Assembly: GCA_963698725.1 (NCBI GenBank)
Contig: CAVORY010000011.1
Location: forward strand, 446,499 to 510,498
Length of the DNA stretch: 64,000 bases
Source of the DNA: an uncultured Acidobacteriota bacterium
GTDB lineage: Bacteria > Acidobacteriota > Vicinamibacteria > Vicinamibacterales > Fen-181
Direction of reading: 5' to 3'
Positions 4,449 to 48,471 of this stretch are shown piece by piece. The notes under the pieces were generated by a model. That model searched no databases, was not told the DNA's origin, and saw only the letters and a list, made by a program, of their open reading frames with translations. A program made the position numbers and the translations under genes. Within the stretch, counting starts at the first letter, position 1. Each line of letters opens with the position of its first letter.

Positions 4449-5144
4449 CTACCGTCGATGAGGTCGTCGTCCGGCAGCGGCCCGTGAAGCGGTGACGCGG
4501 CGTTTGCCGGCGCCGGCAGCGCGGCGTCGGCTCACGCCGGCCGGCGTGCTCGAGGCTGCCTCGTCCTGCTCGCCGGTCCACAGGAGCGCCAGGTCCAGCG
4601 GCACCTCCGAGAACGGCTCTGCACGCACGACCTTCGCGCCGGCATGGGCCGCGGCAATCACCCACCGTCCCGCTTCGAGTTGGAGCGCCTCGAGGAGGCG
4701 CGCGGAAGGATCGATGATCCACGCGTGGCCCACCTTCGCGCGCGCGTAGATCTGGAGCTTCTTCGCCCGGTCGAGCATCGCCGTCGAGGGCGATGAGACC
4801 TCGCACACCCAGTCGGGCGCGAGTGTCAGGTACGGCGCGTCCGGCACGTGTGGGAGGCGGCTGCGGCGCCAGCCGGCCAGGTCCGGCACCAACACGTTCC
4901 GGCCGAAGTGAAGCTCGGGCTCGTAGAGGATCACCCAGCCGCCAGGGCCGCCGCGGCCCAGGTCGAACGGTCCCCCAATGAGCACGCCGAGGAGGGAATG
5001 GGTCTTCGCGTGCCGGAGCGCCGGGCGCGGCGACGCATGCAGTTCGCCGTCAACAATCTCCGCCACCATGATGTCCGGGACCTTCTTCAGGTCCTCATAG
5101 GTGGCCCGGCAATCGAAGGGTGGGACGCGCGGCATCGGCTCCAT
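4449..5144 (-). CDS. Uma2-family (DUF820) putative endonuclease
   Basis: Family-like layout: YEDL..., AEIVDGEL, PDLAGW, APDWVCEVSSPST, DRAKKLQIYARAKVGHAWIIDP. The C-terminal ~45 aa tail is low-complexity. Confidence 0.75.
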   Translation of the reverse strand: MEPMPRVPPFDCRATYEDLKKVPDIMVAEIVDGELHASPRPALRHAKTHSLLGVLIGGPFDLGRGGPGGWVILYEPELHFGRNVLVPDLAGWRRSRLPHVPDAPYLTLAPDWVCEVSSPSTAMLDRAKKLQIYARAKVGHAWIIDPSARLLEALQLEAGRWVIAAAHAGAKVVRAEPFSEVPLDLALLWTGEQDEAASSTPAGVSRRRAAGAGKRRVTASRAAAGRRPHRR

Positions 5145-5297
5145 GATACATCGTCGTATCGCATGGAGGATGCCAACGCCAGGGAGTGGATTCCCGCACG
5201 TTTCGGCGTGATTGTATCGCCCGCGTTGCAGTTTCCTCGAGCCAAGGGCAATGCCCGAGTGCAGAATCTGCAGGCTCGCCGGCGGCCGGCCCCCGCG

Positions 5298-30951: not shown

Positions 30952-32020
30952 CTACGAGATGTCCGGCTTCGGCGTCGTCGCCGTGCTCTTCGGCAGTTCC
31001 GGCTTCTTGGTGTACTCGGGATCGATCTTCCCGGTCAGCACCTTCAGGAAGGTGATGATCTGCTGCGTCTCCGCGTCGGTCAGCTTCTTGCCGAGCTGGT
31101 ACTCGGCCATGTCGCGAACCGCCTTGTCGAGGCTCGCGACCTTGCCGTCGTGGTAGTAGGGACCGGTCTTCTCGATGTTGCGCAGGCTGGGCACCTTGAA
31201 GACGCCCTTGTCGGATTCGCTCTTGGTCACCTTGAAGCGTCCCGGGTCCGCCATCTCCGGATAGGTCTTCACCAGGCCCAGCTTCTGGTACGACGTGCCG
31301 CCGAGCACGGCGCCGTTGTGGCACGCCTGGCAGCCCGTGTCGAGGAACGTCTTCAGGCCGACCAGTTCTTCGGGCGTAAGTGCCGACTGATCGCCGTTCA
31401 GCAGGGCGTCCCAGCGGGACGGCGTCATCAGATTCCGCTCGAACGCGCCGATCGCCTTGGCCATGTTGTCGTACGTGATCGGCTGCTTGTCGTTCGGGAA
31501 CGCCTTCTTGAACAGGTCCAGGTATTCCGGCATCGACTTGAGCACGGCGACGACCTTCGCTTCGCCCGGCATGGCCATCTCCACCGGGTTCAGTACCGGG
31601 TCCCTTCGCCTGGGCCTCGACGTCGGCCGCCCGGCCGTCCCAGAACTGCGCGAAGTGCGCCGCGGCATTGTAGACGGTCGGCGAGTTGCGGTCGCCCACC
31701 TGGCCCTTGTGCCCATCGGAGGTCGGCTGGTTGTCCACGCCGTAGGTCGCCAGGTCGTGGCAGCTGTTGCACGAAATCGTCTGGCTCTTGGAGAGCCGCG
31801 GTTCGAAGTAGAGCATCCGGCCGAGCGTGATCGCGTCGGCATTCATCGCGCCCGACTGCGCCGGTACGGAGGCGGGCAGCGGCGCGAAGACCGACAGCCG
31901 GTCCTTCTCGATCGCCGGGGGCGGCGGAGTTGGGGCGGGCGCGGGTTGCGAGCTGCAGGCGGCAACGAACAACACGATCACCGCCGCGGCCGGCCATGCG
32001 AGAAACCTGAACCTGGTCAT
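30952..32020 (-). pseudogene. Di-haem cytochrome c peroxidase (CCP/MauG family), lipoprotein; interrupted by a +1 nt frameshift near 31596-31604
   Basis: N-terminal frame: lipobox LFVAAC, CNSCH haem motif, FWDGRAADVEAQAKGP. C-terminal frame: VLNPVEMAMP..., CQACHNG, PSLRNI. The junction GGACCCGGTACTG needs one base removed to give the conserved KGPVLNPVEM. Confidence 0.85.
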
Positions 32021-32033
32021 GAGTCCTCCCTTT

Positions 32034-32435
32034 TCAATCGAGCCGCAACCGCTCGACGCCGGCGACGGCGTCGAAGCCGACATCGAACGTCGCAATCCGC
32101 CGGATGTCGTGATTGAGCATCACGGCGGCGTGGATGGCATCGCGAACGCCGACACCGGTCCCACCGAGCAACAGGTCTCTCGCCCGGTCGGTGTCCGCGA
32201 GGGTCACCGGCAGGATCACGGGGCACAGCGCCGCGAACAGATTGTACACGTCCCGCGCCAGGTCGAGTCGCCTGAGAGCGGCGTACCGGTACAGGATCTC
32301 CTGGAGGACCTCCGTACTGCTGCAGACGTCCATCTCGCCGGTGCGCACGCGCTCGAAGAAGCGGAGCGCCGGTCCGCGCAGCGGGTGGTCCCGGCCGGCG
32401 ACGTACATCGGGATGTTCGAATCGACGAAGATCAT
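32034..32435 (-). CDS. vapC: PIN-domain toxin VapC
   Basis: MIFVDSNIPMY... with acidic PIN residues (D5, E, D, D). ATGA overlap with the upstream antitoxin. Confidence 0.85.
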   Translation of the reverse strand: MIFVDSNIPMYVAGRDHPLRGPALRFFERVRTGEMDVCSSTEVLQEILYRYAALRRLDLARDVYNLFAALCPVILPVTLADTDRARDLLLGGTGVGVRDAIHAAVMLNHDIRRIATFDVGFDAVAGVERLRLD

Positions 32436-32668
32436 CGACCCCGCCCCGCCTCGATTTCCGCCAGCATCTGATCGATGTCGCCGGTGGGCGCGCCAAGGGC
32501 CGACAGCCGATCCAATGGATCGACCGGCTCCTTGTCGTCCGCGATCGCGCGCTCCATGGCACGCCGCACCCAGGCACCTTTCGACATCCGGGTGCGCTGA
32601 GCCGCCTTGCGGACCCGCGCATCGAGTCCCTCTGGCACGAGAATCTGCATTCGGATACTCATATGCAC
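32432..32668 (-). CDS. vapB: Ribbon-helix-helix antitoxin VapB
   Basis: 78 aa. IRMQILVPEGLDARVRKAAQRTRMSKGAWVRRAMERA is an RHH pattern. Translationally coupled to vapC. Confidence 0.75.
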   Translation of the reverse strand: MHMSIRMQILVPEGLDARVRKAAQRTRMSKGAWVRRAMERAIADDKEPVDPLDRLSALGAPTGDIDQMLAEIEAGRGR

Positions 32669-32764
32669 ATGCTGTCATGAGTACACATCGTCGTCAAGGC
32701 CCCAGGCCGGGCTCGCCCACCCCGAGTTTCGAGGGCTGGAGGTCCGGCCGTGTCTGGAGGGGGG

Positions 32765-33839
32765 CTATCCGTTCCCGCCCGCGCGCCTGCGCAGCGCGCC
32801 CCAGGCTCTCGCCAGGCGCCCGCCCTGCGACTCACCGGCCTGCTCGAGCAGGTAGGTGTGCCAGTCGTCGCGGTCGCTCGCGACGCGCAGAGGTTTCAGC
32901 GCCAGCAGCCCGGTCGGGCCGATCGACCCTCGCAGGAAGCGCAGTTCCTGCAGCCGGGCTTTGACGTCGGGGTCGGGGGAGGTTTCCAGCCCCGCCTCGC
33001 GCGCCATCAGCATGCCCTTTGCGCGGATGGCCAGTTCGAGTTCGACCCGGAGCAGGCAGAACATGTCGGCCACCACCGGGCCCGGGAACCGCTCCTTGAG
33101 CTGGCCGAGGTACTTCCCGAGCCGCGTGCGCCCGAAGTCGGGGGACGTCACGAGGTTCAGCAGTTCCACATCGAGGTCGAGCCCCTCCCCGACCCACTCG
33201 CGCGTTGCGCGCTCGCTCCGCTCGAACACGTAGGTCACGACCGCAGGCACGAGCACCAGCAGGACGCACGTCGCGACGACCGGCGGCATCGGAAAGTGGT
33301 TGAACGCTGAATGGACGGCCACCGGAAGGGCCAGCGCGGCCGGGACGATGACCACTCCGCGCGCCGGGTACCGGTCGGACAGACTCTTGAGCAGGATCGC
33401 GAACAGCGCGGTCATCGCCCCGTGCAGGATCGCCGGCCCGAACCCGCGGACCAGCCACAGGATGAGACGCTCGTCCTCCACCGTGCGCAGGTACTCCAGG
33501 TTCTCCACCAGCGCGAACCCGGTCCCGACAGAGAAACCGACCAGCGCGGCGTCCACGAGGAACCCCAGCCGCCGCTGCCTCAGCACGATGACGACGTAGA
33601 CCGCCTTGAGGATCTTCCTCCGTCACCGGACCGACGTAGCGGGTGAGCGCGCGCGTGGAGAGGCCCGTTTCGGCCAGCAGCCACGAATGGAGCGCCAGGG
33701 CGGCCAGCGCGCTCAGCGCCCCGGCGATCAGGGCCGCGGCGACGGCTCTGAAGGGCACCAGCTTGAAGCTGTCCATCAGGAGCAGGACAGCCAGGAAGAC
33801 GAGCACCGGGAGCAGGGCCGCGACGATGCTGATCGCCAC
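32765..33839 (-). pseudogene. prsW: PrsW-family intramembrane protease; interrupted by a +1 nt frameshift near 33611-33615
   Basis: Frame A gives the TM-rich N-terminus up to RYVGPVTEE. Frame B continues (I)LKAVYVVIVLRQRRLGFLVDAALVGFSVGTGFALVENLEY...HGAMT...HSAFN. Removing one base in GAGGAAGATCCTC restores the family EExxK motif (EEILK). Confidence 0.8.
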
Positions 33840-33849
33840 GGTCCGAATT

Positions 33850-36829
33850 CTACCTGAGGACCTTCAGCGACACCATCGCCTCGTGGCGAGGCCCGCGCCC
33901 CTGCTCGAACGCCACGCCTGCGCCCACCGACAGCGTCATGTCCAGGTTCGAGAGCACGGTGAAGCGGAAGTCCAGCTGGCCGCCCGCGGTTCCGACGACG
34001 TGGCGGATGTCCGAGGCGTCCATGTTCGTGGCGATGCCGCTCACGAACAGCGCGGGACGCACCCAGGTCAAGTACGCCCCCGGCGTCCCCGCCCTCGCGA
34101 ACCGCCACGGCGGCAGGGTCCATTCGATCATCGTGCGGGCGAAATTGCGGCCGCCCAGCTCGTTCAGCTCCAGTCCGGGGAAGCTGAAGAACTCGCGGTA
34201 CCGCTTCTCGTTGCGGTAGTCCACGTAGTTGTTGCCGAAGCCGCCGAAGTAGAAGTTCGCGAACAGGTTGTTGACGTCGTTCGGCGAGAATCCGGCCGCG
34301 TTGCGGAACCAGACGGACGAATGGGCGATCGGCAGCGGGAACCCGACGTCCAACGTGCCGAGCATCCCGAAAACCGCCGTGCCGTCCACGTAGTCGACCG
34401 CCGCTACGGCGCTCGCCTTGCGGCCCTTCTCGTCGTCCACGCGGCCCATCGAGCCGGTCGTGTTCGAGTACGTTCAGGCGCGCATCGAACGAAGCGAGGC
34501 GATCGACCGACACCTCGACGTTCTGGTACGCCGGCAGCCGGTCGAGGTTGCCCGAGTAACTGGCGCCGAAGGTGACGTCCACCTTCTTCGGCTCGTCGTA
34601 GACGAGGCTCCGCTTGTGCTCGACGCCGAAGACGTACCCCTTGCGCCCGGTCTTGGTCGGCCCGACGATGTCGTAGAAGTCGGCGTTGTTGTACATCGCC
34701 TTGAACTTCCAGTCGTAGCGCTCGTAGTCCATGCGTACGTGGAGCCTCTCGTTGGTCGCAATGTCCCCGTTCAACGAATAGGAGCCCGCCAGCGTGAAGC
34801 GGTTGAGTTCCAGCGGGTCGGAGAAGTTGAAGCGCATCCCGACGGCTTGCGTGTCCTTGTATCCCTGGACGATCGGGTAGAACGACTCGCCCTTCAGACC
34901 TCCGGTCAGGCCGTACTTGCCCTTCTTCTTGTCCAGCGTGTTGTAGTCCACCGGCGGTCTGGTCTCCGTGTTCCAGGTCTTCAGGACCGGATGCTTCTCG
35001 ACCACCTCCGTCCCGAGGAACGTGATGTTGCCGAGGTCGTCGATAGGCGTCGCCGTGAGCCTCGTCAGCACGAACCCCTGGCCCGAGAACCGGAAGGCGA
35101 ACAGGTCGTCTCCGCCGAGCGGCAGCGGCCGGAAGAACCCCGTCTCGGCGTTGGTCACCGCCTCGATCTTCTTCGTGGCCAGCTCGTAGCGGTAGATGTT
35201 CGACACGCCGGTGAGGTAGGAACTCCCGTAGAGAAACCGGCCGTCGGGCGAGAAGACGAAGTTGTTCGGCACGGCGGCCTCGCCGAAGTCGAATTCGGCG
35301 ACCGGCGTGACGTCCTTCTTCAAGACCTTGGCGACGTCCATGACGCGCACGCTCTGGTGGCCGTTGACGAGGCCGAACGAGCACGCCAGGAGTGTGCCGT
35401 CCGGCGACACGTCCAGGTCGTATGGCACCTCGCCGTAAGCGAAGGTGTGTATCTGTTTCCAGTCGGTATAGGGGGGCACGATGCGCACCAGCGTCGCGAG
35501 GCCGTTCAGGTGCCGGATGCCCCACAGCGCCTTGTCGGCGCGGCTGAACGCCAGGTCGCCGATGCGCGCGTCCTTCTGCAGCATCTTCTTCCGGCCGGTC
35601 GCCGGATCGAGCGACATCAGGTCGCGATAGGCGCCGTTGTCCCGCGTGTAGAACAGCATGCGGCTGTCCGGGTCCCAGGCGAGCGCGGTCACCGTGTACA
35701 TCGCCGGGTCCTTCACGTCTGTGATGTGAGCCCCCGACGCGCGCGCGAGGTCGAAGGCGCCGACGTGCGCGACGACACCGGGGTAGTTGAAGGCGGCGTA
35801 GATCTTCCCGGCCTTCTCGTCGTAGTAGGCGCGCGAGACCGAACCCAGCGCTCGCTTCGACAGGTCCTTGTAAGGCGTGATCGGGTATTTCCGGATCGCC
35901 TCGAGGTTCTTCTGCTGGAATCCCTTCTCGAACGCGATCCACTCGGCCCAGGCGTCCTCGATCGACCGGTTGAACACCTTCTTGAACTGCGACGAGTAGT
36001 AGGCCTTGCTGCCGGGCTTTCGCGACGTCCACTCCACGAGTTGCTCGGGCGAGTAGCGGTTCGCCAGCCAGGTCATGAAGCGCGTGCCGTAGAGGTAGGC
36101 GTTGATCTGGAGCTGAAAGTCGATCTTCGTGCCCTCGGACGCCAGGCCCAGAGGATCGTAGATGTGCGCGTTGTCCTTGACCATCGCGCGGAAGACCATC
36201 TCGTCCCACCCGCCCTGCGCACGGCCGATGCCGCCGTCCATCCACGTGTCGGCGAACACCGCGATCCCCTCGTGGAACCACCGTGGCGCGGCCACGCGCG
36301 GCGCGGTCAGGTACGCATAGATCGCGGTCTCGGGCTGCTCCTTGATCGTGGACACCTTGCCGCCGAAGAGGCTGCGGAACGCCTTGTCGGCGCCGGCCGG
36401 CTGCCCCATCGTCGCCACGTGCACCAGCTCGTGGTTCATGATGAGGATGATCCGGTCGTTGGCCGCGATCGTCTCGAACGCGTAGCCGAGCGGCGCAATC
36501 TGGATTGAGAGCCGGTTGCGCGGCGTCACCGACGCGCCGGCATCGGCGCCGTCCGAGAAGTCGGCGAGCAGGACGTACACCTGCTCGTTCGGGTCGAATC
36601 CGAACACCTGGCGCTGGAATTCAAGCGACCTGAGAAACGACTGCACCGCGTGCGGCACGAGGTACGACTCGGTGAAGTCGAAGTAGATGATCGCCAGCTG
36701 GCCGGTGTCGAGGCGCGCGAGCTGCGCGGGGGACGGCGAGGCGGCGAGTGCGGTGAGCAAGAAGACCAGGCTGAACGCGCGAACCGCCCGACCCGACGAG
36801 CCAGCGCGGACCATCGCTTTCGGAGACAT
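33850..36829 (-). pseudogene. Large secreted protein: HExxH metalloprotease-like N-domain, beta-propeller repeats, C-terminal beta-barrel-like domain; +1 nt frameshift near 34469-34473
   Basis: GGGAGGG RBS and a signal peptide. NHELVH, then repeated SPDG propeller motifs. The last ~200 aa (..YSNTTGSMGRVDDEKG...FYFGGFGNNYVDY...) are in another frame. Deleting one base in AACGTACTCG joins them as ..ARLNYSNTTGS... Confidence 0.75.
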
Positions 36830-36935
36830 CGGCCCTCCCGTGCGGTCGGAACGATGGACGAACACACGAAGGCCCGGCGGCTCCCGCCATGGAGTCGCCG
36901 GGCACCTGACCCTCCGGTGAACCGCGCGCCGAACG

Positions 36936-38396
36936 CTACCTCGTTTTGATGAGACTCGCCTGCAGGGCCGCCTGGTCCTTCAGGGCCGCCTCGAAGTCGG
37001 GGTTGCCGATCAGCGCCGCGAAGCTGGGATCCCGGAGCGCTGCCTGGAAGTCGGGGTCGCCCAGCAGGGCGGCGAACGACCTCAGGCCCGCCCGCGCTTT
37101 CAGCGCGGCGTCGGCAGCGTCGCCCTGCATCGCGGCCTGCCCCTTCACCGCGGCCTGCCCCCTGAGCGCGGCCTCGAACGCGTCGTCGCCGCACAGCTTC
37201 GCCATCCCCTTGATGTTGGCTTGGAACGCCTCGTCGGTGAGCAGCTTGCTGAGCAGGCCGTTCTGCGCCTTCAGCGCCGCCTCAAACGACTCGTCGGATA
37301 TCATGGCCGCGAAGCGGTCGCCGTTCTTCAGCGCGGCCTGGACCGCGTCGTCGGCCAGCATCGCCGCGAACAGCTTGTTCCGAAGCGCGGCCTGGATCCC
37401 TGCCTGCTTCAGACTCGCCTGCTTCAGATTCGCCTCCTTGAGCGCCGCCTCGGCCTCGGCGAAGAGCTTCGCGAGCCCGACCTTGTTCCTCAACGCGGCC
37501 TGAACGTCATCGTCCATCAGGTACGCCTTGGCGGCGGGGTCCCTGAGCGCCGCCTCCATTGCCTCGCTCATGAGCGCCGCGTCGACGGCGTCGTCCATGA
37601 GCGCCGCCTCCACGTCGGCGTCGGCCAGCGCCGCGACGACATCCTGATCAGTGAGCGCCGCCTGCACGTCGTCGTCGGCCAGCGCCGCCAGCAGCTTCGC
37701 GTCCTTCAGGGCCGCATCGACGTCCCCGTCCTTCAGCGCCGCTTCCACCGCGTCGCTGGCGAGCAGCGCGCAGACCTCCGGATCCGCGAGCAGGCTGCGG
37801 ATCTCCTTGTTCTTCATGATCTTGTCGAACGTGTCGCTCTGGAGGAACGCCTGCGCATTGCCTGGCTTGGCGCTGACACCCGACGGCTGGGCGCCGCGAT
37901 ACCGGTCGGCCGCCCCGATGGCGCCCTGGGCCCCCTGGTCCACCGTCCGGCCATTGAAGTACACGACGGCGAGAAGGACGACGACCGCGAGCCCGGCGAC
38001 TCCCCACAACGCTTTCTTTGCCACGATCACACCTCCTCCGGCCATGCCGGCCTTGCGGAACGAATCCGAAGAATGGCTTCCCTGCTGAGAACGATGTGCG
38101 AACCAGGGAAATAGTTGGCGGCCGATCGCGGCCGGCAGCGACGCGAGGCGCCGGTGCCAGGCCGGACGCGGGGACCTGACGGCGGCAACCTCCGCCATCA
38201 CCCGGTCCGAAAACCCACCGGGAGGCTCTTCCGGGCCGAGCCCGTCCACCGCGGCGGCCAGACGCGCCAGAAGCTCGGCGCGTGCGCCGAGGTCCCGGTC
38301 CGCTGCGAGGCGGGCGCGGAACTGCTCCGCCTCCCCGGGCGAGAGCGCGCCGTCCAGTGCGCGATGAATCAACTCGTCGTCTTCGGGCCGGATCAT
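36936..38396 (-). CDS. Anti-sigma factor, single TM, with a long extracytoplasmic xxxAAL(K/R/M)D repeat domain
   Basis: The N-terminal anti-sigma helix (IHRALDGALSPGEAEQFRARL) is coupled by ATGA to the ECF sigma gene. TM at GVAGLAVVVLLAVVYF. More than 20 short repeats such as DVQAALTD, DVEAALMD, FEAALKD. Confidence 0.75.
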   Translation of the reverse strand: MIRPEDDELIHRALDGALSPGEAEQFRARLAADRDLGARAELLARLAAAVDGLGPEEPPGGFSDRVMAEVAAVRSPRPAWHRRLASLPAAIGRQLFPWFAHRSQQGSHSSDSFRKAGMAGGGVIVAKKALWGVAGLAVVVLLAVVYFNGRTVDQGAQGAIGAADRYRGAQPSGVSAKPGNAQAFLQSDTFDKIMKNKEIRSLLADPEVCALLASDAVEAALKDGDVDAALKDAKLLAALADDDVQAALTDQDVVAALADADVEAALMDDAVDAALMSEAMEAALRDPAAKAYLMDDDVQAALRNKVGLAKLFAEAEAALKEANLKQASLKQAGIQAALRNKLFAAMLADDAVQAALKNGDRFAAMISDESFEAALKAQNGLLSKLLTDEAFQANIKGMAKLCGDDAFEAALRGQAAVKGQAAMQGDAADAALKARAGLRSFAALLGDPDFQAALRDPSFAALIGNPDFEAALKDQAALQASLIKTR

Positions 38397-38944
38397 GACT
38401 CACGCTTCCAGTTCAGAAGGTCCTCGCCCAGTCGCTGCCGCGCCGAGTACAGCCTCGATTTCACGGTCTTCTCGGGCACGCCCAGCGCCTCGGCCATCTC
38501 AACGTAGGACATCCCCGCGTAGTGGCGCAGGACGACCACCTCGCGGTAGGCGGGCGTCAGACGCCTCAGCGCCAGCCGTACCCCCGTCCGCAACTCGGCC
38601 CGCTCGGCAATCCGGTGGGGGCTGTCCCCGGACGCCATGCTGGCATCGAGCGGCTCCATCAGGCGACGCGACCGCCTGACATTGAGGCACTCGTTCACCA
38701 GGATGCGGTAGAGCCAGCTGAAGAACTTGTGCCCGCTGTCGTACGTCTGGAGCTTCCGATAGGCGCTGACGAACGCGTCCTGGGCGGCGTCGGTGGCCGC
38801 GTCGGCGTCGCCAAGCATCCGGACGGCCACGGTGAACAGTACGCGCTGGTACCGTTCCACGAGCGTCCGGAACGCTGCCGTGTCGCCGCCGAGGCACCGC
38901 TCGACGATCACGCGGTCGTCGTCCTCGCCTACAGGAAAGGACAC
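38393..38944 (-). CDS. ECF-type RNA polymerase sigma-70 family factor
   Basis: Region 2 (FFSWLYRILVNECLNVRR) and region 4 (VVVLRHYAGMSYVEMAEALGVPEKTVKSRLYSARQRL). Confidence 0.9.
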   Translation of the reverse strand: MSFPVGEDDDRVIVERCLGGDTAAFRTLVERYQRVLFTVAVRMLGDADAATDAAQDAFVSAYRKLQTYDSGHKFFSWLYRILVNECLNVRRSRRLMEPLDASMASGDSPHRIAERAELRTGVRLALRRLTPAYREVVVLRHYAGMSYVEMAEALGVPEKTVKSRLYSARQRLGEDLLNWKRES

Positions 38945-39047
38945 GCGACCTCCGGGGAAGTTGGCGCGGGGTGGCCGGACGACTGGTTCGAACCGCGTAC
39001 CTTATACCACATCGCCGGTGGTATGATGACCGGGCTTCGAGCGCGCC

Positions 39048-39501
39048 ATGGTCTCCGAGCCGCGGCTCACCGTCCGTGTGGCAGCCGGCCAGGACGGCCT
39101 TCGCTCGGCCGCGGGCGCCCTCGACCGGTTCGAGGCCGCCCACTCGCTGGAATCCGGAGGCGGCATGGCCGGTTCACGTCGCGCTCGACGAGGTCCTCTC
39201 CAACGTCGTCCGTCACGGGACCGCCGGTCGCCCGAACCCGGTCATCGAAGTCACGTTCACGCTGGCCGCCGGAAGCCTCGAGGTCACGGTGGTGGACGAC
39301 GGTCCGGAGTGGGACCCGCTGGCGCTGCCGCCGCCCGACACGGCGACGCCGCTCGAAGCCAGGCGCCCCGGGGGGCTCGGCGTGCACCTGGTCCGGAACC
39401 TCATGGACCGCGTCACCTACAGTCGGCAGGATGATCGCAACCGGCTGGTGTTCGCGCGCCACTGCGAGGCAGCCGTTCGCGGGGCCCGTCTCAAGGAGTA
39501 G
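39048..39501 (+). pseudogene. RsbW-like anti-sigma factor/serine kinase (HATPase_c); +1 nt frameshift near 39147-39154
   Basis: The N-terminal 34 codons (MVSEPRLTVRVAAGQDGLRSAAGALDRFEAAHSL) are in one frame. The N-box onward (PEAAWPVHVALDEVLSNVVRHG...GGLGVHLVRNLMDRV) is in the +1 frame. Confidence 0.7.
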
Positions 39502-39505
39502 CCGC

Positions 39506-39844
39506 ATGGAGATCTCGCAGGTCGCGATGGACGGCGCGCTGGTGGTGGCGCCGGCAGGGCGCGTCGACAGCACCACCAGCGAGGCGCTCGAGCGCGCGCT
39601 GGCCGCGGCGCTGGACGGCGGGGCGCGCCGGATGGTGGTCGACCTCTCCGGCGTCGCCTACATCAGCAGCGTCGGCCTTCGCGTGCTGCTCGTCGTCGCC
39701 AAGCGGATGCGGACCGAGCGGGGCACGCTGGTGCTGTGCGGCCTGGGGGACGCCGTCAGGCAGGTCTTCGACCTGGCGGGATTCCTGCCGCTGTTCGCCG
39801 TCGAACCGTCGCGCGAACTGGCCGTCAGGCGGGCCGCGAACTGA
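39506..39844 (+). CDS. STAS-domain anti-sigma-factor antagonist (RsbV/SpoIIAA-like)
   Basis: AAGGAG RBS. DLSGVAYISSVGLRVLL contains the phosphorylatable Ser context. 112 aa. Confidence 0.85.
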   Translation: MEISQVAMDGALVVAPAGRVDSTTSEALERALAAALDGGARRMVVDLSGVAYISSVGLRVLLVVAKRMRTERGTLVLCGLGDAVRQVFDLAGFLPLFAVEPSRELAVRRAAN

Positions 39845-39849
39845 ACGGG

Positions 39850-39902
39850 GAGCCGGCAGACCGGCTCAGGGCTCACGGCTCAGGGCTTACGGCTCACGGC
39901 GG
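39850..39902. repeat. Perfect 7-bp hairpin (GAGCCGG-caga-CCGGCTC) running into about 5 GGCTNAS heptamers
   Basis: Begins 6 nt after the STAS stop. CGGCTCA GGGCTCA CGGCTCA GGGCTTA CGGCTCA. Confidence 0.85.
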
Positions 39903-39950
39903 CCGGCCCGGAGGCCGGCGCCGCAAGGGGCGGATTCTGGGGCGGATTGC

Positions 39951-40218
39951 GGTTGAACCACGGAGGGCACAAAGACCACAGAGATTCCAAGCTGAGGCTT
40001 CGACCGGGAGGCGCCACCGCGATGCGGCGGCGCCGGTCGCCCGGACGCGGCGCCGCGGGAACGAGCCCGCCAGTCGCTCTCGCGGGTTCGTTCCCGTTGC
40101 GCCGCGCCCGGCGGTCCGGGCCATTCGGCCCGGCCCCGGTCGAAGCCCGAACGGCCGTCACGCTGGCATACGTGACGCGGGCAAGCCTCCGTGCCCTCTG
40201 TGTTCTCTGTGGTTGAGG
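39951..40218. repeat. About 270-bp structured intergenic element (MITE-like or ncRNA) with related termini and a central 15-bp hairpin
   Basis: Termini share the CCACAGAGA/TCTCTGTGG and GGAGGGCAC/GTGCCCTCC words in inverted orientation. Central stem CGGGAACGAGCCCGC...GCGGGTTCGTTCCCG at about 40052-40095. Confidence 0.5.
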
Positions 40219-40240
40219 TCGGAGAATCGAGCAGACAGAC

Positions 40241-41906
40241 GTGGCCACCCTCGTCCTCACCATCGAACGACCCGGCCGGCCGGCCGAGACCGCGACATTC
40301 GACGCGGAGGAGCTCTTCGTCGGTCGCCGTGAGGGCGTGGACATCGCCATCCCGGACACGAGCGTGTCGCGACGCCACGCCCGGATCTTCCGGCGCGGGG
40401 ATGGCTGGTGGTCGAAGACCTGGCGTCGCGCAACGGCACGAAGCTGAACGGCATCCCCGATTTCCGGGCCAGCGCCATTCGCGGCGGGCGACTGCCGTGC
40501 GCATCGGCGACGCTACGCTGTGCATGCCGGCGCCGGGGGGCTCCGCGCCCCGCCCGGGCCCGTTCGCGAGCGCCTCCGACGACCACCTCACGACCTTCTC
40601 GGTCATCAAGCCGGCCGCCTCGCTGCTGGACGCGACCGGTGACCATGCGCAGGCCTCCTCCCGGCTGCGCATGCTGAACGAGGTGCATCGGGCCCTGGCG
40701 GCCCCGGTGTCGCGCGACGCGCTCCTGCAGATCGTCCTCGACCACGCGTTCGCCGCGTTGCGGCCGGAGTATGCCGCCGTGTTCCTCCTCGGCGCCGGAG
40801 GAGAACTCGTGCGAGCCGCCGAACGCCGCTCGTCGACGGCGTCGGCCACGCTGCTGATCTCGCGCCGCCTGGCCGAGGAGGTCACCGTCAAGGGGGCGGC
40901 GGCGCTGGTGCTGGACGCCCAGCTCGATGAGCGTTTCGCGTCCGAGAGCGTCATTCTCTCCGGCGTCCGCAGCATCGTCGCAGCGCCCCTCTCGGACGCC
41001 GAAGGCTGCCTGGGCATGATCGCCCTCTACTCGCACGCCGAGGCGAAGCGCTTCACCGAGGCCGACCTCGAGCTGCTGGTGTCGCTCGCGTCGGCGGCGG
41101 CGCTGCGCGTGCGCAATATCGCGCTGGTCGAGCAGGCGGCCGAACGCCGGGCGCTCGACCGCGAACTCGCGCTCGCGCGCGAAATCCAGGCGGGCATGCT
41201 TCGCCACCGGCTGCTGGAGCGGCCGGAGGTGTCCTTCGCCGCCCGCCAGATACCGGCTCACCTGGTCGGCGGCGACTTCTACGAGTTCCAGGCCGACCTC
41301 ACCCGCCTCTGGTTCGTCATCGGCGACGTGGCCGGCAAGGGGATGGCGGCCGCCCTGATGATGGCAATGGCGCAGACCCTGTTTCGCGCGACCGCCAGCC
41401 TCGGCCGGCCGATCGACGAGGTCATGGCCCATCTGAACCGCGACCTGGCGCGCGACAACGACCGCGCGATGTTCGTCACCGCCCTCGGCGGCTGCCTCAA
41501 TCTCGAAACGGGCCTGCTGCACCTGGTCAACGCCGGCCACAACCTCGCCTACCGCGTGCGATGCGACGGCTCGTTCGACGTCATCCGGGCCGCCAACGGC
41601 GTCGCGCTGGGGGTGGTCGAGGACGCGGTCTTCCCTGTCACCACGACCGCCCTCGAGCCGGGCGAGGCGCTGCTGGCCTACACGGACGGCGTGTGCGACG
41701 CCATCAGCCCGTCTGGCGCCGCCTTCGGCATCACGGGCCTCGAGCGCCACCTCGCCACGGTTGGCCGCCTCAGCGCCGACGCCGTCGTCGCCAGCGTGTT
41801 CGAGGTCGTGGAGCGGTTCGCCGAGGGCGCCCCTCAGGAGGACGACATCACCGTCGCCATGATCCGGTATCACGGGCCCGCGCGGGACGGCCCGCCGGCG
41901 CCGTGA
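40241..41906 (+). pseudogene. FHA-GAF-PP2C (SpoIIE/RsbU-type) serine phosphatase; two -1 nt frameshifts, near 40405-40411 and 40483-40493
   Basis: The FHA core is split over three frames: VGRREGVDIAIPDTSVSRRHARIFRRGDGW / VEDLASRNGTKLNGIP...AIRGG / TAVRIGDATLCM. The GAF region and PP2C motifs (GGDFYEF, VIGDVAGKGMAAAL, NAGHN, YTDGV) follow in the third frame. Confidence 0.8.
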
Positions 41907-41995
41907 TAAAATAGCTGGTTGTTTGGGTGGTGGACGGTCGTGGCACTAATACCGCCTCCTTCGAGGCACATTCGCAGCAGAGAGGGGATCATCCA

Positions 41996-43282
<1,287 letters not shown>

Positions 43283-43284
43283 AC

Positions 43285-43320
43285 GGGCTCAGGGCTTAGG
43301 GCTCAAGGCTCAAGGCCTAA
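43285..43320. repeat. Heptamer repeat, 5 units (GGCTCAG GGCTTAG GGCTCAA GGCTCAA GGCCTAA)
   Basis: Starts 3 nt after the gdhA stop. Confidence 0.85.
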
Positions 43321-43327
43321 GGAACGA

Positions 43328-43362
43328 GGGGCGGTCGAGCAATCGGCCGCCCCTTTTCTTTT
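43328..43362 (+). terminator. Rho-independent terminator of gdhA
   Basis: GGGGCGG...CCGCCCC stem with an inner CGA/TCG extension, followed by TTTTCTTTT. Confidence 0.7.
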
Positions 43363-43446
43363 CCGCCTCCCCGCCCTCCGCCCTCCGCCCTCCGCCTCCC
43401 CGCCCTCCGCCTTCCCGCCCTCCGCCTTCCCGCCTTCCCGCCTATT
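43363..43446. repeat. CCGCCCT-type 7/8-nt tandem repeat (about 11 units)
   Basis: CCGCCCT CCGCCCT CCGCCCT CCGCCTC CCCGCCCT CCGCCTT CCCGCCCT CCGCCTT CCCGCCTT CCCGCC. Pure pyrimidine-rich strand asymmetry. Confidence 0.9.
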
Positions 43447-43479
43447 CGAGTATCCTCATCTAGCGCGAGAGCGCGCCCG

Positions 43480-45282
43480 ATGACCACCACCCTGACGCGT
43501 CCGGCGATCCCCGCGTTCGACCGGCATTTCTTCGACGGGACCGAGCAGTTCACCTGCATCGGCAGCGGCCCCTACGGCGGCAAGGCCCACGGCCTGCTGA
43601 CGGTGAAGGACCTGCTGGCGACGGGGCTGGAAGCGGCGGCAGGCCGCGCCGTAGCCCGAGGGGCGAAGGCGGGGTCGAAGGCGTTCCTCCGCCACTTCGA
43701 CGTGCAGGTGCCGACGCTCACGGTGGTGACGACCGACCTGTTCGAGACGTTCATGTCGTCGAACCGGCTGTGGGACGTGGTGAACGCCGGCGAGCCGGAT
43801 CACCGGATCGCCCTCGCCTTCCTGGCCGCGGACCTGCCGGTCGAGCTGCTCGGGGATCTCTACGCCCTCACCCGCCAGGTTCACACGCCGCTGGCCATCC
43901 GGTCGTCCAGCCTGCTCGAGGACGCGCTGAACCAGCCGTTCGCCGGCGTCTACGCGACGAAGATGATCCCCAACAACCAGCACGACGTGGAGACGCGGTT
44001 CCACAAGCTGGTCGAGGCGGTGAAGTTCGTCTACGCGTCCACGTTCTTCCAGAACGCGCGTGACTACCGGCGCCTGACAGGCCACACGGGGGAGGACCGC
44101 ATGGCGGTCATCCTTCAGGCGATCGTCGGCCGCCGTCACCGCGACCGGTTCTATCCGGAGCTGTCGGGCGTGGCCCGATCGTACAGCTTCTACCGCTCCG
44201 GGAACACGCGGCCCGAGGACGGCGTCATCAACCTCGCGTTCGGCCTGGGGAAGACGATCGTGGACGGCGGCGTCACGTGGAGCTGCTCGCCGGCGCAGCC
44301 CCGCGCGACGCCGCCGTATTCGTCGGTCCGCGACCTGCTGCGCCAGACGCAGGTGCAGTTCTGGGCGGTGAACATGGGCAAGCCGCCCGCCTACGACCCG
44401 GTCGAGGAGGCCGAGTACCTCGTGCAGTCGGCGGTGGCCGACGCCGAGGAGGACGGCACGCTGCGGCTGGTGGCCTCCACCTACGATGCCGGGTCGGACC
44501 GCCTGTCGATGGGCGTGGGCGTCCGCGGCCCGCGCGCGCTCAACTTCGCGCCGCTGCTGGTGCTCGAGGAGTATGCGCTGAACGACCTCCTCAAGGCGCT
44601 GATGACACTGTGCCAGGAGGCGCTGGGCGCGCCGGTCGAGATCGAGTTCGCGGTGACGTTCCCGCCCGAAGGCGAGGATGGCCCGGCAAAGTTCGGGTTC
44701 CTCCAGGTCCGGCCAATGTCGGTGTCGGACACGGTGGTGGACATCGACCTCCAGTCGCTCGATCGCGGCGCCCTGCTCCTCGCCTCGGAGCGGGTGATGG
44801 GCAACGGCCTCGTCCCGGACGTTCGCGACGTCGTCTACGTGAAGCCGGAGGTGTTCGAGGCCCGCCACACGCCGGCCATCGCGTCCGACATCGCGCGGAT
44901 CAACGTGGGCCTGGTGGACCAGGGCATTCCGTACCTGCTGATCGGGTTCGGCCGCTGGGGAAGCTCGGATCCCTGGCTCGGCATCCCGGTCACCTGGCCG
45001 CAGATCGGGGGCGCCAAGGCCATCGTGGAGGCGACGCTGCCGGCGATGAACGTCGACCTGAGCCAGGGGTCGCACTTCTTCCACAACATCTCGAGCTTCA
45101 ACGTCAGCTATTTCTCGGTCCCCTTCCACGGCGACTTCCCGATCGACTGGGACGGCCTCTCGCGTCAGCCGGCGCTGACCGAGACCGATTTCGTCCGCCA
45201 TGTTCGCCTCGCCGCGCCGCTGCACATCGCCGTGGACGGGCGCCAGGGACACGGCGCCATCCTGTGGAGACAGGTTCCGTAA
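43480..45282 (+). CDS. PEP/pyruvate-binding (PPDK N-terminal ATP-grasp) domain protein, no phosphohistidine swivel domain seen
   Basis: 600 aa. LAIRSSSLLEDALNQPFAGVYATK signature and later a GFGRWGSSDPWLG segment. No GGxTSH motif. Confidence 0.8.
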   Translation: MTTTLTRPAIPAFDRHFFDGTEQFTCIGSGPYGGKAHGLLTVKDLLATGLEAAAGRAVARGAKAGSKAFLRHFDVQVPTLTVVTTDLFETFMSSNRLWDVVNAGEPDHRIALAFLAADLPVELLGDLYALTRQVHTPLAIRSSSLLEDALNQPFAGVYATKMIPNNQHDVETRFHKLVEAVKFVYASTFFQNARDYRRLTGHTGEDRMAVILQAIVGRRHRDRFYPELSGVARSYSFYRSGNTRPEDGVINLAFGLGKTIVDGGVTWSCSPAQPRATPPYSSVRDLLRQTQVQFWAVNMGKPPAYDPVEEAEYLVQSAVADAEEDGTLRLVASTYDAGSDRLSMGVGVRGPRALNFAPLLVLEEYALNDLLKALMTLCQEALGAPVEIEFAVTFPPEGEDGPAKFGFLQVRPMSVSDTVVDIDLQSLDRGALLLASERVMGNGLVPDVRDVVYVKPEVFEARHTPAIASDIARINVGLVDQGIPYLLIGFGRWGSSDPWLGIPVTWPQIGGAKAIVEATLPAMNVDLSQGSHFFHNISSFNVSYFSVPFHGDFPIDWDGLSRQPALTETDFVRHVRLAAPLHIAVDGRQGHGAILWRQVP

Positions 45283-45287
45283 CCGCC

Positions 45288-48200
45288 ATGAACCCGATTA
45301 ACCAGCCGGTCAACAACATCATCGAGCAGCTCCAGGAACGGGCGAAGGAGCTGCATACGCTCTACAAGGTCCACGAGCTGATCAACCAGCAGGACGCCCC
45401 GATCGACGAGGTCTGCCGGGCGCTGACGGAGGTGGTGCCGGCCGGCTGGCAGTACCCGAGCGTCTGCTGGGCGCGCATCACGCTCGACAACACGGTGTAC
45501 CAGCCGCCGCGCGTGACCGAGACCCCGTGGGTGCAGCGCGCCGCCATCACCGCGCAGGGCGAGACGGTGGGATCGCTCGAGGTCTTCTACACCCGCCAGA
45601 TGCCGCGCGCCGACGAGGGGCCGTTCCTCAAGGAGGAGCGGAAGCTCATCGACACCATCGCCGAGCGCCTGGGCCACTTCGTGATGCAGCGCCGGCTGCA
45701 GGCCACGCTCCGCAACTGGCAGTCGGCTATGGAGAACCTCGCGTCGCCGGAGCGGCGCGAGTGGTGGGTCATCATCGAGTTCCTGCGAAAGACCGACCAG
45801 CACCTGCTGATGCGGATCTCGCGCCGGATGCTGAACTACCTGTGCTGGAACGGCATCGACGAGGCGCAGCAGCTGCTGCAGCGGTTCGCCGCCGACTTCA
45901 CGGCGCAGACCGAGGGGTTCGAGGACAACATCCCGCTGCGGCGCAAGAGCATGGAGGAGCTGCTGGCGCTGACCGAGGACGCGTTCCGCATCGCCGCCGC
46001 GCATCTGAGCGAGGGCGAGATCGTCAGCTGCATCCAGACCTGGATCAAGGACGACAAGTCGGGCTTCCTCGTGGAGGCGGTCGAGAACCAGTGCACCTCG
46101 CTCACCGACATCGGGCAGGCGCTGGAGCGCTATCACCAGCTCGCGGTGCAGGACGAGGAGCTGTCACGGTCGGTGCAGATCGGCCTGCGGGTCTCGCTGG
46201 CGCGGCGGTTCTTCACCGAGGATCTCGAGTTCATCAACACCGCGAAGAACTACATCGGGATTGCCGATTTCTACGAGCTGGTCAACCACATCATCAGCCC
46301 GCCCGCGAGCCACGGGAAGCTCGGCGGCAAGAGCGCCGGGATGCTGCTCGCCTCGCAGATCATCCGCCGGTCGGGCGAGCACGCCGACCTGCTGGCGAAC
46401 GTCAAGGTGCCGAAGACCTGGTACATCGCGTCGGACGGCCTCATGAGCTTCGTCGAGTACAACCAGCTCGAGGACGTCTACAACCGGAAGTACCTCGAGA
46501 TCGAGCAGATCCGCCGTGAGTACCCGCACATCGTCCAGGTGTTCAAGAACTCGCGGTTCGCGCCGGAAATCATGAAGGGGCTGTCGCTGGCCCTCGACGA
46601 TCTCGAGGGCAGGCCGCTGATCGTCCGCAGCTCGAGCCTGCTCGAGGACCGGATGGGCGCCGCCTTCTCCGGCAAGTACAAGAGCCTTTTCCTCGCCAAC
46701 GTCGGCACCAAGGGGGAGCGGCTGAGCGCGTTGATGGACGCGATTGCCGAGGTCTACGCGTCGCTGTTCAGCGCCGACCCGATCGAGTACCGCGCCGAGC
46801 GCAACCTGCTCGACCTCCACGAGGAGATGGGGATCATGATTCAGGAGGTGGTGGGCTCGCGCGTCGGCCCCTACTTCCTGCCGTCGTTCGCCGGCGTCGC
46901 GTTCAGCAACAACGAGTTCCGCTGGTCGCCGCGCATCAAGCGCGACGACGGGCTGGTGCGCCTCGTGCCGGGCCTCGGCACGCGCGCCGTCGACCGCGTC
47001 GGCGACGACTACCCGATTCTCGTCGCCCCCGGCCAGCCGGGCCTGCGGGTCAACGTCACGCCCGACGAGATCCTGCGCTACGCCCCGCGCAAGATCGACG
47101 TCATCAACATCGAGACGCGGCGCTTCGAGACGATCGATGCGTCGGAGCTGTTCCGCGATTACGGGCGGGAGCTGCCGGCGCTCGACCAGATCGCGTCGGT
47201 CTACGACAGCGAGGGGATCCACCGGCCCGTCGGTTTCGGCTGGGACCCGGCCGAATCGCAGACCGTCGTCACCTTCGACGGCCTGATCAGCGCCACGCCG
47301 TTCATGGCGAGGATGCGGACGCTGCTCAAGCTGCTGCGCGAGCGGATCGGATCGCCTGTGGACATCGAGTTCGCCTCGGACGGCCGCGACCTCTACCTGC
47401 TGCAGTGCCGGCCGCAGAGCTTCTCGCAGGACGCCGTGCCGTCGGCCATCCCGCGCGACCTGCCGTACGACCGCGTGCTGTTCGCGGCCAACCGCTACGT
47501 GTCGAACGGGCGCGTCCCGGACATCACCCACGTCGTCTACGTCGACCCGGGGGAGTACAGACCAGCTCGAAAGCCTCGCCGAGATGAAGGACGTCGGGCG
47601 CGCGATCGGGCGGCTCAACAAGATGCTGCCGAAACGGCAGTTCATCCTGATGGGCCCCGGGCGCTGGGGCAGCCGCGGCGACATCAAGCTGGGCGTCAGC
47701 GTCACCTACTCCGACATCAACAACACCGCGGTGCTGATGGAGATTGCGGCGAAGAAGGGAAACTACGTCCCCGACCTGTCGTTCGGCACCCACTTCTTCC
47801 AGGATCTCGTCGAGGCCGGCATCCGCTACCTGCCCCTCTTCCCGGGCGACGACGGGCAGAAGTGCAACGAGCTGTTCCTCCGACGATCGCCGAACATCCT
47901 CGCTGAGATCGTGCCGGAATACGCCCACCTCGCGCACGTGGTGCGCGTGATCGACGTGCCCAAGGCGACCGACGGCCTGATCCTCCAGGTGCTGATGAAC
48001 GCCGACCTCGAGGAGGCGGTCGGGTACTTCGCGCCGACGACGGTGACGCAGGGGACGGCGCCGGAGCGGCGCCCCGACATCCACGCGGTCACCGAGGACC
48101 ACTGGCGGTGGCGGCTGCGCATGGCCGAGCACATCGCGGCCGAGGTAGACCCGGTGCGGTTCGGCATCAAGGGGATGTACGTCTTCGGCAGCACGAAGAA

Positions 48201-48471
48201 CGCGACGGCCGGCCCCGGCAGCGACATCGACCTGATCGTCCACGTCGACGCCGTCGAGCAGACGCGGCAGCAGCTGGAAGTGTGGCTCGAGGGGTGGAGC
48301 CTCTGTCTGAGCGAGATCAACTACCTGCGGACCGGCTACCGGACGGAAGGCCTGCTCGACGTGAAGATCGTCACCGACGCCGACTTCACGAACCACTCGA
48401 GCTTCGCGTCGAAGATCGGCGCTATCACCGACCCCGCCCGCGCGCTTCCGCTCCGTCGTGGCGCGGGGTAG
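45288..48471 (+). pseudogene. Multidomain paralog: sensor-like N-domain, PPDK-N ATP-grasp domain, C-terminal minimal nucleotidyltransferase; +1 nt frameshift near 47556-47561
   Basis: LIVRSSSLLEDRMGAAFSGKYKSLF. After VVYVDPGEY the frame shifts to DQLESLAEMKDVGRAIGRLNK...GPGRWGSRGD, which is collinear with the intact paralog. The C-terminal FGSTKNATAGPGSDIDLIVHV is a Pol-beta-type NTase G[ST]x9-10DxD motif. Confidence 0.8.

Follow-up and report, generated by a model that had tools for sequence, protein, structure and literature searches.

The window analysed here, a 64-kb stretch of DNA, belongs to a metagenome-assembled genome of a Vicinamibacteria-like member of the Acidobacteriota, a species representative with CheckM-type scores of 90% completeness and 5% contamination. 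A 16-kb stretch of the window contains six genes interrupted by single-base indels, together with an intact STAS gene that serves as a control within the cluster (Table 1). An Rfam scan of the window matched zero families, so neither of its two repeat families is a known RNA.

Table 1 Genes of the 16-kb stretch, with window coordinates and break sites numbered in order of position
Gene	Coordinates	Strand	Site	State of the reading frame
Di-haem cytochrome c peroxidase (CCP)	30952..32095	-	1	Split by +1 at 31597-31600
PrsW-family intramembrane protease	32765..33839	-	2	+1 at 33612-33614, GAAG[A]TCC, within the EExxK motif
Large HExxH/beta-propeller envelope protein	33850..36865	-	3	+1 at ~34468-34475, CTGA[A]CGTACT
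RsbW-like anti-sigma kinase	39048..39501	+	4	+1 at 39151, CTGGA[A]TCC
STAS anti-anti-sigma factor	39506..39841	+		Intact
FHA-GAF-PP2C (RsbU/SpoIIE-type) phosphatase	40241..41906	+	5-7	Three indels, all in the FHA domain: -1 at 40410/40411 (TT to T), +1 at 40457-40460 (CCC to CCCC), +1 at 40493/40494 (GAC[T]GCC)
PPDK_N/nucleotidyltransferase fusion	45263..48471	+	8	Inserted A at 47559, directly 3' of GAGTAC

Single-base indels in the 16-kb stretch

An initial annotation had described seven frame changes in these genes, five +1 and two -1, and all seven are present. Using a seven-state codon-score Viterbi frame model, with which the whole assembly (6.0 Mb, 14 contigs) was scanned, we found frame switches at window positions 31600, 33616, 34471, 40400, 40493 and 47558, and the RsbW site was established separately by alignment. 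At the Viterbi switches the upstream frame continues without a stop for 45-782 nt, against -2 to +25 nt at ordinary gene junctions of the window. The tally of indels was revised when they were placed by DNA alignment to orthologues, the closest comparators being 85-94% identical and none belonging to the same species: there are eight, seven insertions and one deletion, and the second shift in the FHA domain, formerly read as one -1, is two +1 insertions in alignments to genomes G009 and G012 and the JGI contig L025, against which all three FHA indels were placed. The sites were said to lie mostly outside long homopolymers, which is true of all eight (longest run, 4 nt); with no long homopolymer or simple-sequence repeat at these sites, a phase-variable contingency locus was rejected. 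The frame model also agrees with the initial annotation in finding no further break in the 48 kb of the window outside the stretch. Two simpler approaches were abandoned: a detector demanding that the upstream stop lie inside the downstream ORF found only one of the seven, since at 69% GC an off-frame ORF can run for hundreds of nucleotides before a stop, and mechanical ORF lists and simple GC3 filters were too noisy to be useful.

Comparison with orthologous loci, a check proposed at the outset, showed that the comparators lack the indels and differ by one base only, with none of the eight present in any relative compared. Reading across the breaks recovered complete CCP_MauG, PrsW, HATPase_c_2 and FHA domains in Pfam searches. 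In the CCP gene, where the break follows AGTACC at 31592-31597 and precedes GGG on the + strand, one frame matches profile positions 3-81 and the second frame positions 79-148, the two joining into one stretch (3-148 of 149) across the break; genome G006 is one base shorter there. Genomes G009, G020 and G012 each have one base fewer at the PrsW break, across which the PrsW-protease profile matches as a single stretch (2-194 of 196), and the same three lack one base at the HExxH/propeller break (AGTACG on the + strand), after which the orthologue reading R-L-T-Y-S-D/N-T-T-G-S-M-G-R-V-D-D-E-K goes on in the window's second frame.

The downstream genes follow the same pattern. The extra RsbW base is absent from G012 and from L025 (93% identical), whose RsbW product is intact at 150 aa, and HATPase_c_2 spans the window's break in a single stretch (6-125 of 127). 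The window's STAS ORF (111 aa) is collinear with that of G012; L025 has a private frame break in its own STAS gene, which counts against attributing the window's indels to error. Homologues of the phosphatase (81-93% identity) are 554-555 aa long and include FHA, whereas the product called in the window has 469 aa and lacks it; the FHA profile is nevertheless continuous across the breaks (3-67 of 67), and an intact 554-aa phosphatase is encoded on metagenome contigs at 93% protein identity. At the PPDK_N junction, seven relatives (G006, G001, G009, G012, G002, G011 and G004) have AGTAC-GAC without the A, and the neighbouring intact paralogue (43478-45262), with which this protein had been described as collinear, aligns across it, covering residues 351-862 of the protein read through the break.

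The initial annotation left open whether the indels reflect error or a signalling/envelope gene neighbourhood that has recently decayed into true pseudogenes. The neighbourhood in question would be the CCP, PrsW and propeller genes and the RsbW/FHA-PP2C partner-switching set. The second reading draws on the presence of the indels in the deposited sequence, on a break density (8 indels) in the stretch 4-5 times the genome mean beside an otherwise clean window, which also counts against error, and on the location of six of the eight indels within a PrsW-to-PP2C block that relatives carry at a different genomic location. It is at odds with the absence of every indel from the relatives and with the FHA domain, where three indels fall within 85 nt and yet the surrounding protein sequence is perfectly conserved.

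Frame breaks across the assembly

Breaks of the same kind occur throughout the genome. The frame model yielded 624 breaks in a loose class (36-nt cut-off) and 474 in a strict, high-confidence class, distributed over every contig at 7-17.5 per 100 kb. Among 20 random breaks checked against Pfam, 13 were true, 5 false and 2 uninformative, and in every false call the next stop was <64 nt away; within the strict subset, 11 of 13 were true, two uninformative and none false. Coding sequence in this consensus is estimated to contain some 500-800 single-base indels, with about one frame break per 8-12 kb throughout. Strict breaks are predominantly net +1 (416, against 58 others), an excess of which detection bias accounts for only a small part (detection probability at the loose cut-off, 0.95 versus 0.73 for the two shift directions). 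Only five same-frame junctions with a gap of ≤12 nt were found, and these resemble ordinary stop, RBS and start junctions, giving a ratio of breaks to premature stops of about 474:0.

Essential genes are also affected, and some genes are hit heavily. Beside dnaA, gyrB is split at CAGTAC[C]GAG, although when read through the break it gives a single continuous TIGR01059 match of 1003.7 bits; an FtsH gene and a PBP gene are also broken, and the pstSCAB operon has ~30 frame changes in 6 kb with its domains still recognisable. Pseudogene-rich reductive genomes such as that of Mycobacterium leprae likewise contain many genes interrupted by frameshifts, but these are accompanied by nonsense mutations, deletions, loss of conservation and the sparing of essential genes, none of which is seen here. 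With similar breaks some 500 times in the genome, gyrB, FtsH and pstSCAB included, without the premature stops or larger deletions of a mixed lesion spectrum, and with three of the eight local indels following a genome-wide insertion rule at AGTAC (below), we consider pseudogenisation of the neighbourhood very improbable.

The cluster that had been described as localized is so within the window, but not on the scale of the genome: 16-kb windows with ≥5 strict breaks make up ~2.9% of all, the present stretch is among them, and denser clusters exist. Break counts in 16-kb bins are over-dispersed (variance/mean ratio, 2.09), breaks are 1.55-fold enriched in the 25 kb next to a contig end, and five of the ten dense clusters have such an end no more than 18 kb away.

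Sequence context of the breaks

Homopolymers are not enriched at the breaks, with a run of ≥4 nearby at 8.6% of breaks and 8.7% of background positions, which rules them out as the cause. A short motif is strongly enriched instead: 41% of breaks lie at GTAC, which was observed 169 times against 17.8 expected, a 9.5-fold excess. Of 149 oriented sites, AGTAC is followed by C at 130, by G at 12 and by A at 7, never by T; the net change is +1 at 145, and the extra base, usually C, sits directly 3' of the motif. Of all AGTACC copies, 7.9% coincide with a break, compared with 0.8-0.9% of AGTACA, AGTACG and AGTACT copies. A weaker class of breaks is associated with AGAATC, and the two motifs together cover about half of all breaks, an association that is new relative to the initial annotation. 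We know of no published report of an AGTAC-specific insertion.

Locally, sites 1, 3 and 8 are linked to AGTAC, whereas site 4, and possibly site 2 as well, is GAATC-like; neither the three FHA indels nor the pst patch has a motif link. Motif density was excluded as the source of the local cluster, AGTAC being similarly frequent in the 16-kb stretch (1.35 per kb) and elsewhere in the window (1.15 per kb).

A strong net +1 bias linked to a short motif could also point to programmed recoding, in which the frames are restored at a common signal, either by +1 frameshifting on the ribosome or by slippage during transcription. AGTAC is on the coding strand at 89 of the 149 sites and on the opposite strand at the remaining 60, so it cannot act in the mRNA; moreover, a comparison of the eight local contexts revealed no common slippery sequence, and orthologues without the extra base encode the same protein in a single frame. 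Programmed recoding is almost certainly not the explanation.

The motif-linked insertion recurs beyond this genome. In the assemblies of two other species, G002 (20 contigs) and G003 (1 contig), gyrB is interrupted by this same extra C, while the gene is intact at that point in G008, G009 and G022. Judged from these sequences, a gyrB break in three species' assemblies does not look like inheritance, and it would still be an artefact, since it disrupts an essential gene that is unbroken at this point in other relatives. The proposal that indels shared by related strains would refute error is consequently unsafe.

Discussion

The eight local indels are very probably errors of the assembly consensus and not mutations in the organism. 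This reading is favoured by the genome-wide scale of the breaks, the lack of other kinds of decay, the +1 bias and motif link, the essential genes hit, the recurrence of the gyrB break in other assemblies, the private nature of the local indels and the enrichment near contig ends. Of the two possibilities first raised, error is strongly supported and pseudogenisation is not. The error is, however, no patch or collapse peculiar to these 16 kb, which form one patch of moderate density in an assembly with breaks throughout. The errors show two components. One is a systematic, sequence-specific insertion of a base, usually C, after AGTAC on either DNA strand, with a weaker class at AGAATC. The other consists of indels without a sequence context, which are patchy and gather where quality is low and towards the ends of contigs. 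Both are probably mixed in the ordinary way in the 16-kb cluster, with the three FHA indels representing a small low-quality patch.

A refinement of the error reading, and no true alternative to it, is that the indels are errors but the cluster arises mainly from low local coverage or a strain-variable segment, for example if the PrsW-PP2C block were present in only part of the population. The over-dispersed break density, the enrichment at contig ends and the FHA and pst indels outside any motif are consistent with this, as is G006, in which the CCP and PPDK genes are only ~3.4 kb apart without the block between them. The motif link of three to five of the eight local sites and the nearly equal AGTAC density inside and outside the stretch argue against it, and we regard it as a plausible, though not the probable, origin of the cluster.

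Consensus error of this kind has precedents. Residual indels fragment gene calls in nanopore assemblies and MAGs (Sereika et al. 2022, PMC9262707; proovframe preprint 10.1101/2021.08.23.457338; Kastor, PMC12007338), being worse in low-quality or low-coverage parts and lowering marker-gene completeness in few-contig assemblies (PMC9262707; 10.1101/2021.08.23.457338; PMC12007338). As here, single-base indels split conserved genes genome-wide. Published accounts stress homopolymers, whereas the present breaks show no such enrichment and insertions exceed deletions by ~4:1 or more; the lack of the classical nanopore signature of homopolymer indels and the dominance of insertions count against the error reading. 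Systematic nanopore consensus errors linked to methylation motifs, such as Dcm CCWGG (Wick et al. 2019, PMC6591954), are similar in involving a short motif on either strand, a fraction of its copies and recurrence in independent assemblies of related organisms. The Dcm errors are substitutions, whereas those at AGTAC^N and AGAATC are one-base insertions (the caret marks the insertion point).

The pattern suggests that the platform was nanopore-type long reads, and the motif effect may be due either to modified bases or to a k-mer bias in basecalling or polishing. It is conceivable, although we think it rather doubtful, that the AGTAC- and AGAATC-linked insertions mark a putative base modification of this Vicinamibacteria-like genus, the frameshifts remaining artefacts. 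If so, the error pattern might, equally tentatively, indirectly report an uncharacterised methylation motif shared by at least three species (G000, G002 and G003).

These observations bear on how such genomes are used. About one gene in ten is broken in a genome that represents its species, the gyrB break is common to at least two related representative genomes, and truncated proteins of the assembly, such as the 469-aa phosphatase without FHA, are already in public protein collections. A frameshift common to several assemblies is no proof that it is real. The AGTAC^N insertion rule, which is simple and can be checked, could flag or correct a large share of the errors. For the organism, the six genes call for correction and for annotation as intact, with errors in the sequence, and not as pseudogenes; among the genes to be read as intact is a complete partner-switching module comprising an ECF sigma factor with RsbW, STAS and FHA-GAF-PP2C proteins.

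Eight single-base indels in six conserved genes

Mechanical ORF lists are of no use at 69% G+C; frames were instead assigned across the source assembly (G000) using a codon log-odds table trained on long, high-GC3 ORFs and a seven-state Viterbi model (six frames plus one non-coding state). In the window, the model moved to another frame of the same strand at 31600, 33616, 34471, 40400, 40493 and 47558, the upstream frame remaining stop-free for 45–782 nt at these six positions; the distance between switch and stop is −2 to +25 nt at all of the window's ordinary gene junctions. Alignment to orthologous loci placed each lesion as a single-base difference. The frameshifts of the initial annotation are therefore present in the sequence, by Viterbi and by orthologue alignment, but the count of seven is not: there are eight indels, one site having been miscounted. 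The second FHA shift, read as −1, comprises two +1 insertions, and the tally of five insertions and two deletions becomes seven and one.

Single-base indels placed by alignment, with AGTAC contexts
Gene or domain	Indel	Evidence	Motif context
CCP	+1 at 31597–31600	DNA alignment with G006	AGTACC at 31592–31597, then GGG; fits AGTAC rule
PrsW	+1 at 33612–33614	DNA alignment with G009, G020, G012	
Large HExxH/propeller protein	+1 at ~34468–34475	DNA alignment with G009, G020, G012	GAGTACG, + strand; fits AGTAC rule
RsbW-like kinase	+1 at 39151	DNA alignment with G012 and L025 (JGI contig, 93% identical)	
FHA domain (FHA-GAF-PP2C phosphatase)	−1 at 40410/40411; +1 at 40457–40460; +1 at 40493/40494	Alignments	
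PPDK_N/NTase	A inserted at 47559	Alignment with seven relatives	GAGTAC[A]GAC; fits AGTAC rule
G-numbers other than G000 are genomes of relatives.

Pfam divided CCP_MauG between two frames (profile positions 3–81 in one, 79–148 in the other), and bridging the breaks yielded single-stretch domains for CCP_MauG (3–148 of 149), PrsW-protease (2–194 of 196), HATPase_c_2 (6–125 of 127) and FHA (3–67 of 67). The claimed collinearity of the PPDK_N/NTase gene with its paralogue held, the adjoining gene at 43478–45262 aligning over the PPDK junction, and the frame model likewise detected none in the remaining 48 kb of the window. On the minus strand, the coding signal of ORF 4449–5146 stops ~80 nt short of the ORF's stop, which is probably a low-scoring C-terminal tail and not a frameshift.

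Frame breaks throughout the assembly

G000 comprises 6.01 Mb in 14 contigs at 68.5% G+C, the window being C11:446499–510498, and its listed completeness (89.98%) and contamination (5.04%) identify it as a metagenome-assembled genome (MAG); many relatives in the genus are also in 1–30 contigs and are just 68–92% complete. Homologue names place G000 in Acidobacteriota, near Vicinamibacteria. Genome-wide, 624 frame switches stayed on one strand and had no stop close by (loose set); in 474 of them, 100 nt or more separated the switch from the next stop (strict set). Checking 20 random switches outside the window for junction-spanning Pfam domains gave 13 true frameshifts, five ordinary gene junctions and two uninformative cases; each of the five false calls was <64 nt from the next stop, and the strict class yielded 11 true, two uninformative and no false calls. 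Because the strict set recovers five of the eight real events in the window, the true number of breaks in coding sequence is probably 500–800, or about one per 8–12 kb.

The breaks had been considered localized, a view that the 474 strict breaks do not support. No contig is spared (7–17.5 loose-set breaks per 100 kb), and at least five strict breaks, as in this stretch, occur in ~2.9% of all 16-kb windows; the cluster is thus moderately dense, not singular. Strict breaks are absent from ~5% of 48-kb windows. Counts per 16-kb bin are over-dispersed (variance/mean 2.09), with 1.55-fold enrichment in the outer 25 kb of contigs and five of ten dense clusters ≤18 kb from an end. The densest patch, the pstSCAB operon with its upstream porin gene (contig C11, 384–390.4 kb), has ~30 frame changes in 6 kb, mostly without a motif link, and once these are bridged PBP_like_2, two BPD_transp_1 and ABC_tran are all recognizable.

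Two short motifs mark about half of the breaks

Breaks are not enriched at homopolymers, runs of at least four lying within 8 nt of 8.6% of breaks versus 8.7% of random coding positions. GTAC was found at 169 of 474 breaks versus 17.8 expected, with GGTAC and AGTAC enriched ~19–20-fold. At the 149 oriented AGTAC sites, the following base is C (130), G (12) or A (7) and never T, the next is G or T, and the net change is +1 in 145; the extra base is the one immediately 3' of AGTAC, as seen in frames such as GAG TAC [C] GAG and CAG TAC [C] GAC and in the gyrB alignment. AGTACC occurs 1,958 times in the assembly, ≤15 nt from a break in 7.9% of cases, versus 0.8–0.9% for AGTACA, AGTACG and AGTACT. 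Since AGTAC occurs on either strand (coding 89, opposite 60), it must act at the level of DNA or sequence read-out, and cannot act in translation or transcription. AGAATC forms a weaker second class (18 sites versus 1.2 expected), GAATC-linked sites being net +1 in 34 of 35 cases, and the motifs together account for 228 of the 474 strict sites. The AGTAC rule applies to three of the eight local sites; the RsbW break lies in GGAATCC.

Almost certainly consensus error rather than pseudogenization

The initial annotation left open local assembly error or recent pseudogenization, and the lesion spectrum favours error. In-frame premature stops are essentially lacking against 474 frame breaks; only five same-frame junctions have gaps ≤12 nt, and these resemble ordinary stop, ribosome-binding site and start junctions. 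Direction is strongly one-sided, net +1 in 416 breaks and net −1 in 58, and unequal detection probability (0.95 versus 0.73 with the loose cut-off of 36 nt) explains only a small part of the excess. In the multiply hit FHA domain and pst operon, amino-acid sequence is kept in every segment, which is not the pattern of relaxed selection after a first inactivating lesion. Searched for in relatives by alignment, the eight local lesions were found in none, and intact FHA-GAF-PP2C proteins of 554 aa are encoded, at 91% and 93% identity, on two independent JGI metagenome contigs; the called product of the window phosphatase is 469 aa and lacks the FHA domain.

Essential genes are also hit. FtsH is split in G000, as is gyrB, beside dnaA, at C13:306229 (locus L027), where an extra C follows CAGTAC; the bridged gene scores 1003.7 bits in a single stretch on the TIGR01059 gyrB equivalog. 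The identical extra C occurs in gyrB of G002 (L029; 20 contigs, 92% complete) and G003 (L034; one contig, 91%), giving two overlapping ORFs in each, and alignment shows gyrB of G008, G009 and G022 to be without it, as one 866-aa ORF in G009. Inheritance does not explain an essential gene broken in three species and intact in other members of the genus; systematic read-out error of a common technology plausibly does. With this break common to three species' assemblies, sharing by relatives is unsafe as a test of reality here. Together, the near-absence of premature stops, the +1 bias, the essential genes hit, the conserved segments and the private lesions make consensus error almost certain and do not support pseudogenization. 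It is best to treat all six genes as intact.

Other assemblies carry private breaks: the CCP gene of G006 (L006, contig C7) has an extra G where the window is in frame, and the STAS gene of L025 has a net −1 at 2068–2087 and is called as just 69 aa, the window STAS being intact. Break sets thus differ from one assembly to the next.

Local excess and gene neighbourhood

Break density in the stretch exceeds the genome mean 4–5-fold. Motif density was rejected as the cause because AGTAC is similarly frequent in the stretch (1.35 per kb) and in the rest of the window (1.15). Low local coverage is plausible, as is a strain-variable block, because CCP and PPDK in G006 (C7:50802–58476) are only ~3.4 kb apart, without the ~9.5-kb PrsW to FHA-PP2C block (window 32450–41900) that separates them here. 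The block keeps its synteny in G009 (C1:590–599 kb) and G012, where it is far from CCP and PPDK; it may have been rearranged or may vary between strains.

Positions 36936–41906 hold a complete signalling module, in which anti-sigma and ECF sigma genes (−) face the RsbW-like kinase, STAS and FHA-GAF-PP2C genes (+), in an order identical in L025, G009, G012 and G020. A ~260-bp repeat with partly inverted ends (39956–40218), between the STAS and FHA-GAF-PP2C genes, has 47 further, partly overlapping BLAST matches in G000 (68–85% identity) as well as copies in both G006 and G002. L025 (93% identical) lacks this repeat, its STAS–FHA gap being just 2 nt, and the repeat looks like a MITE-like insertion. 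A shorter repeat (~55–75 bp; 32690–32766), downstream of PrsW, has ~25 copies in G000 and many in G006, often as inverted pairs ~220 bp apart (for example, C3:540715–540770 (+) with 540938–540989 (−)). Neither repeat matched Rfam.

Probable source and implications

Across the genome, the indels are single-base and mostly insertions, about half at the two motifs and the rest in patches or near contig ends. The assembly probably derives from nanopore-type long reads that were not effectively polished with short reads; residual frameshifting indels are documented in such MAGs below ~40-fold coverage (PMC9262707), as are consensus errors clustered at methylation motifs (PMC6591954). For the motif-linked breaks, the cause may be modified bases at a motif that contains GTAC or, alternatively, a k-mer bias in the basecaller or polisher. 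The AGTAC^N rule is simple and of practical value, and we know of no report of AGTAC-specific insertion. The biological interest of the breaks is low; their practical value is as a warning for G000 and related representative genomes.
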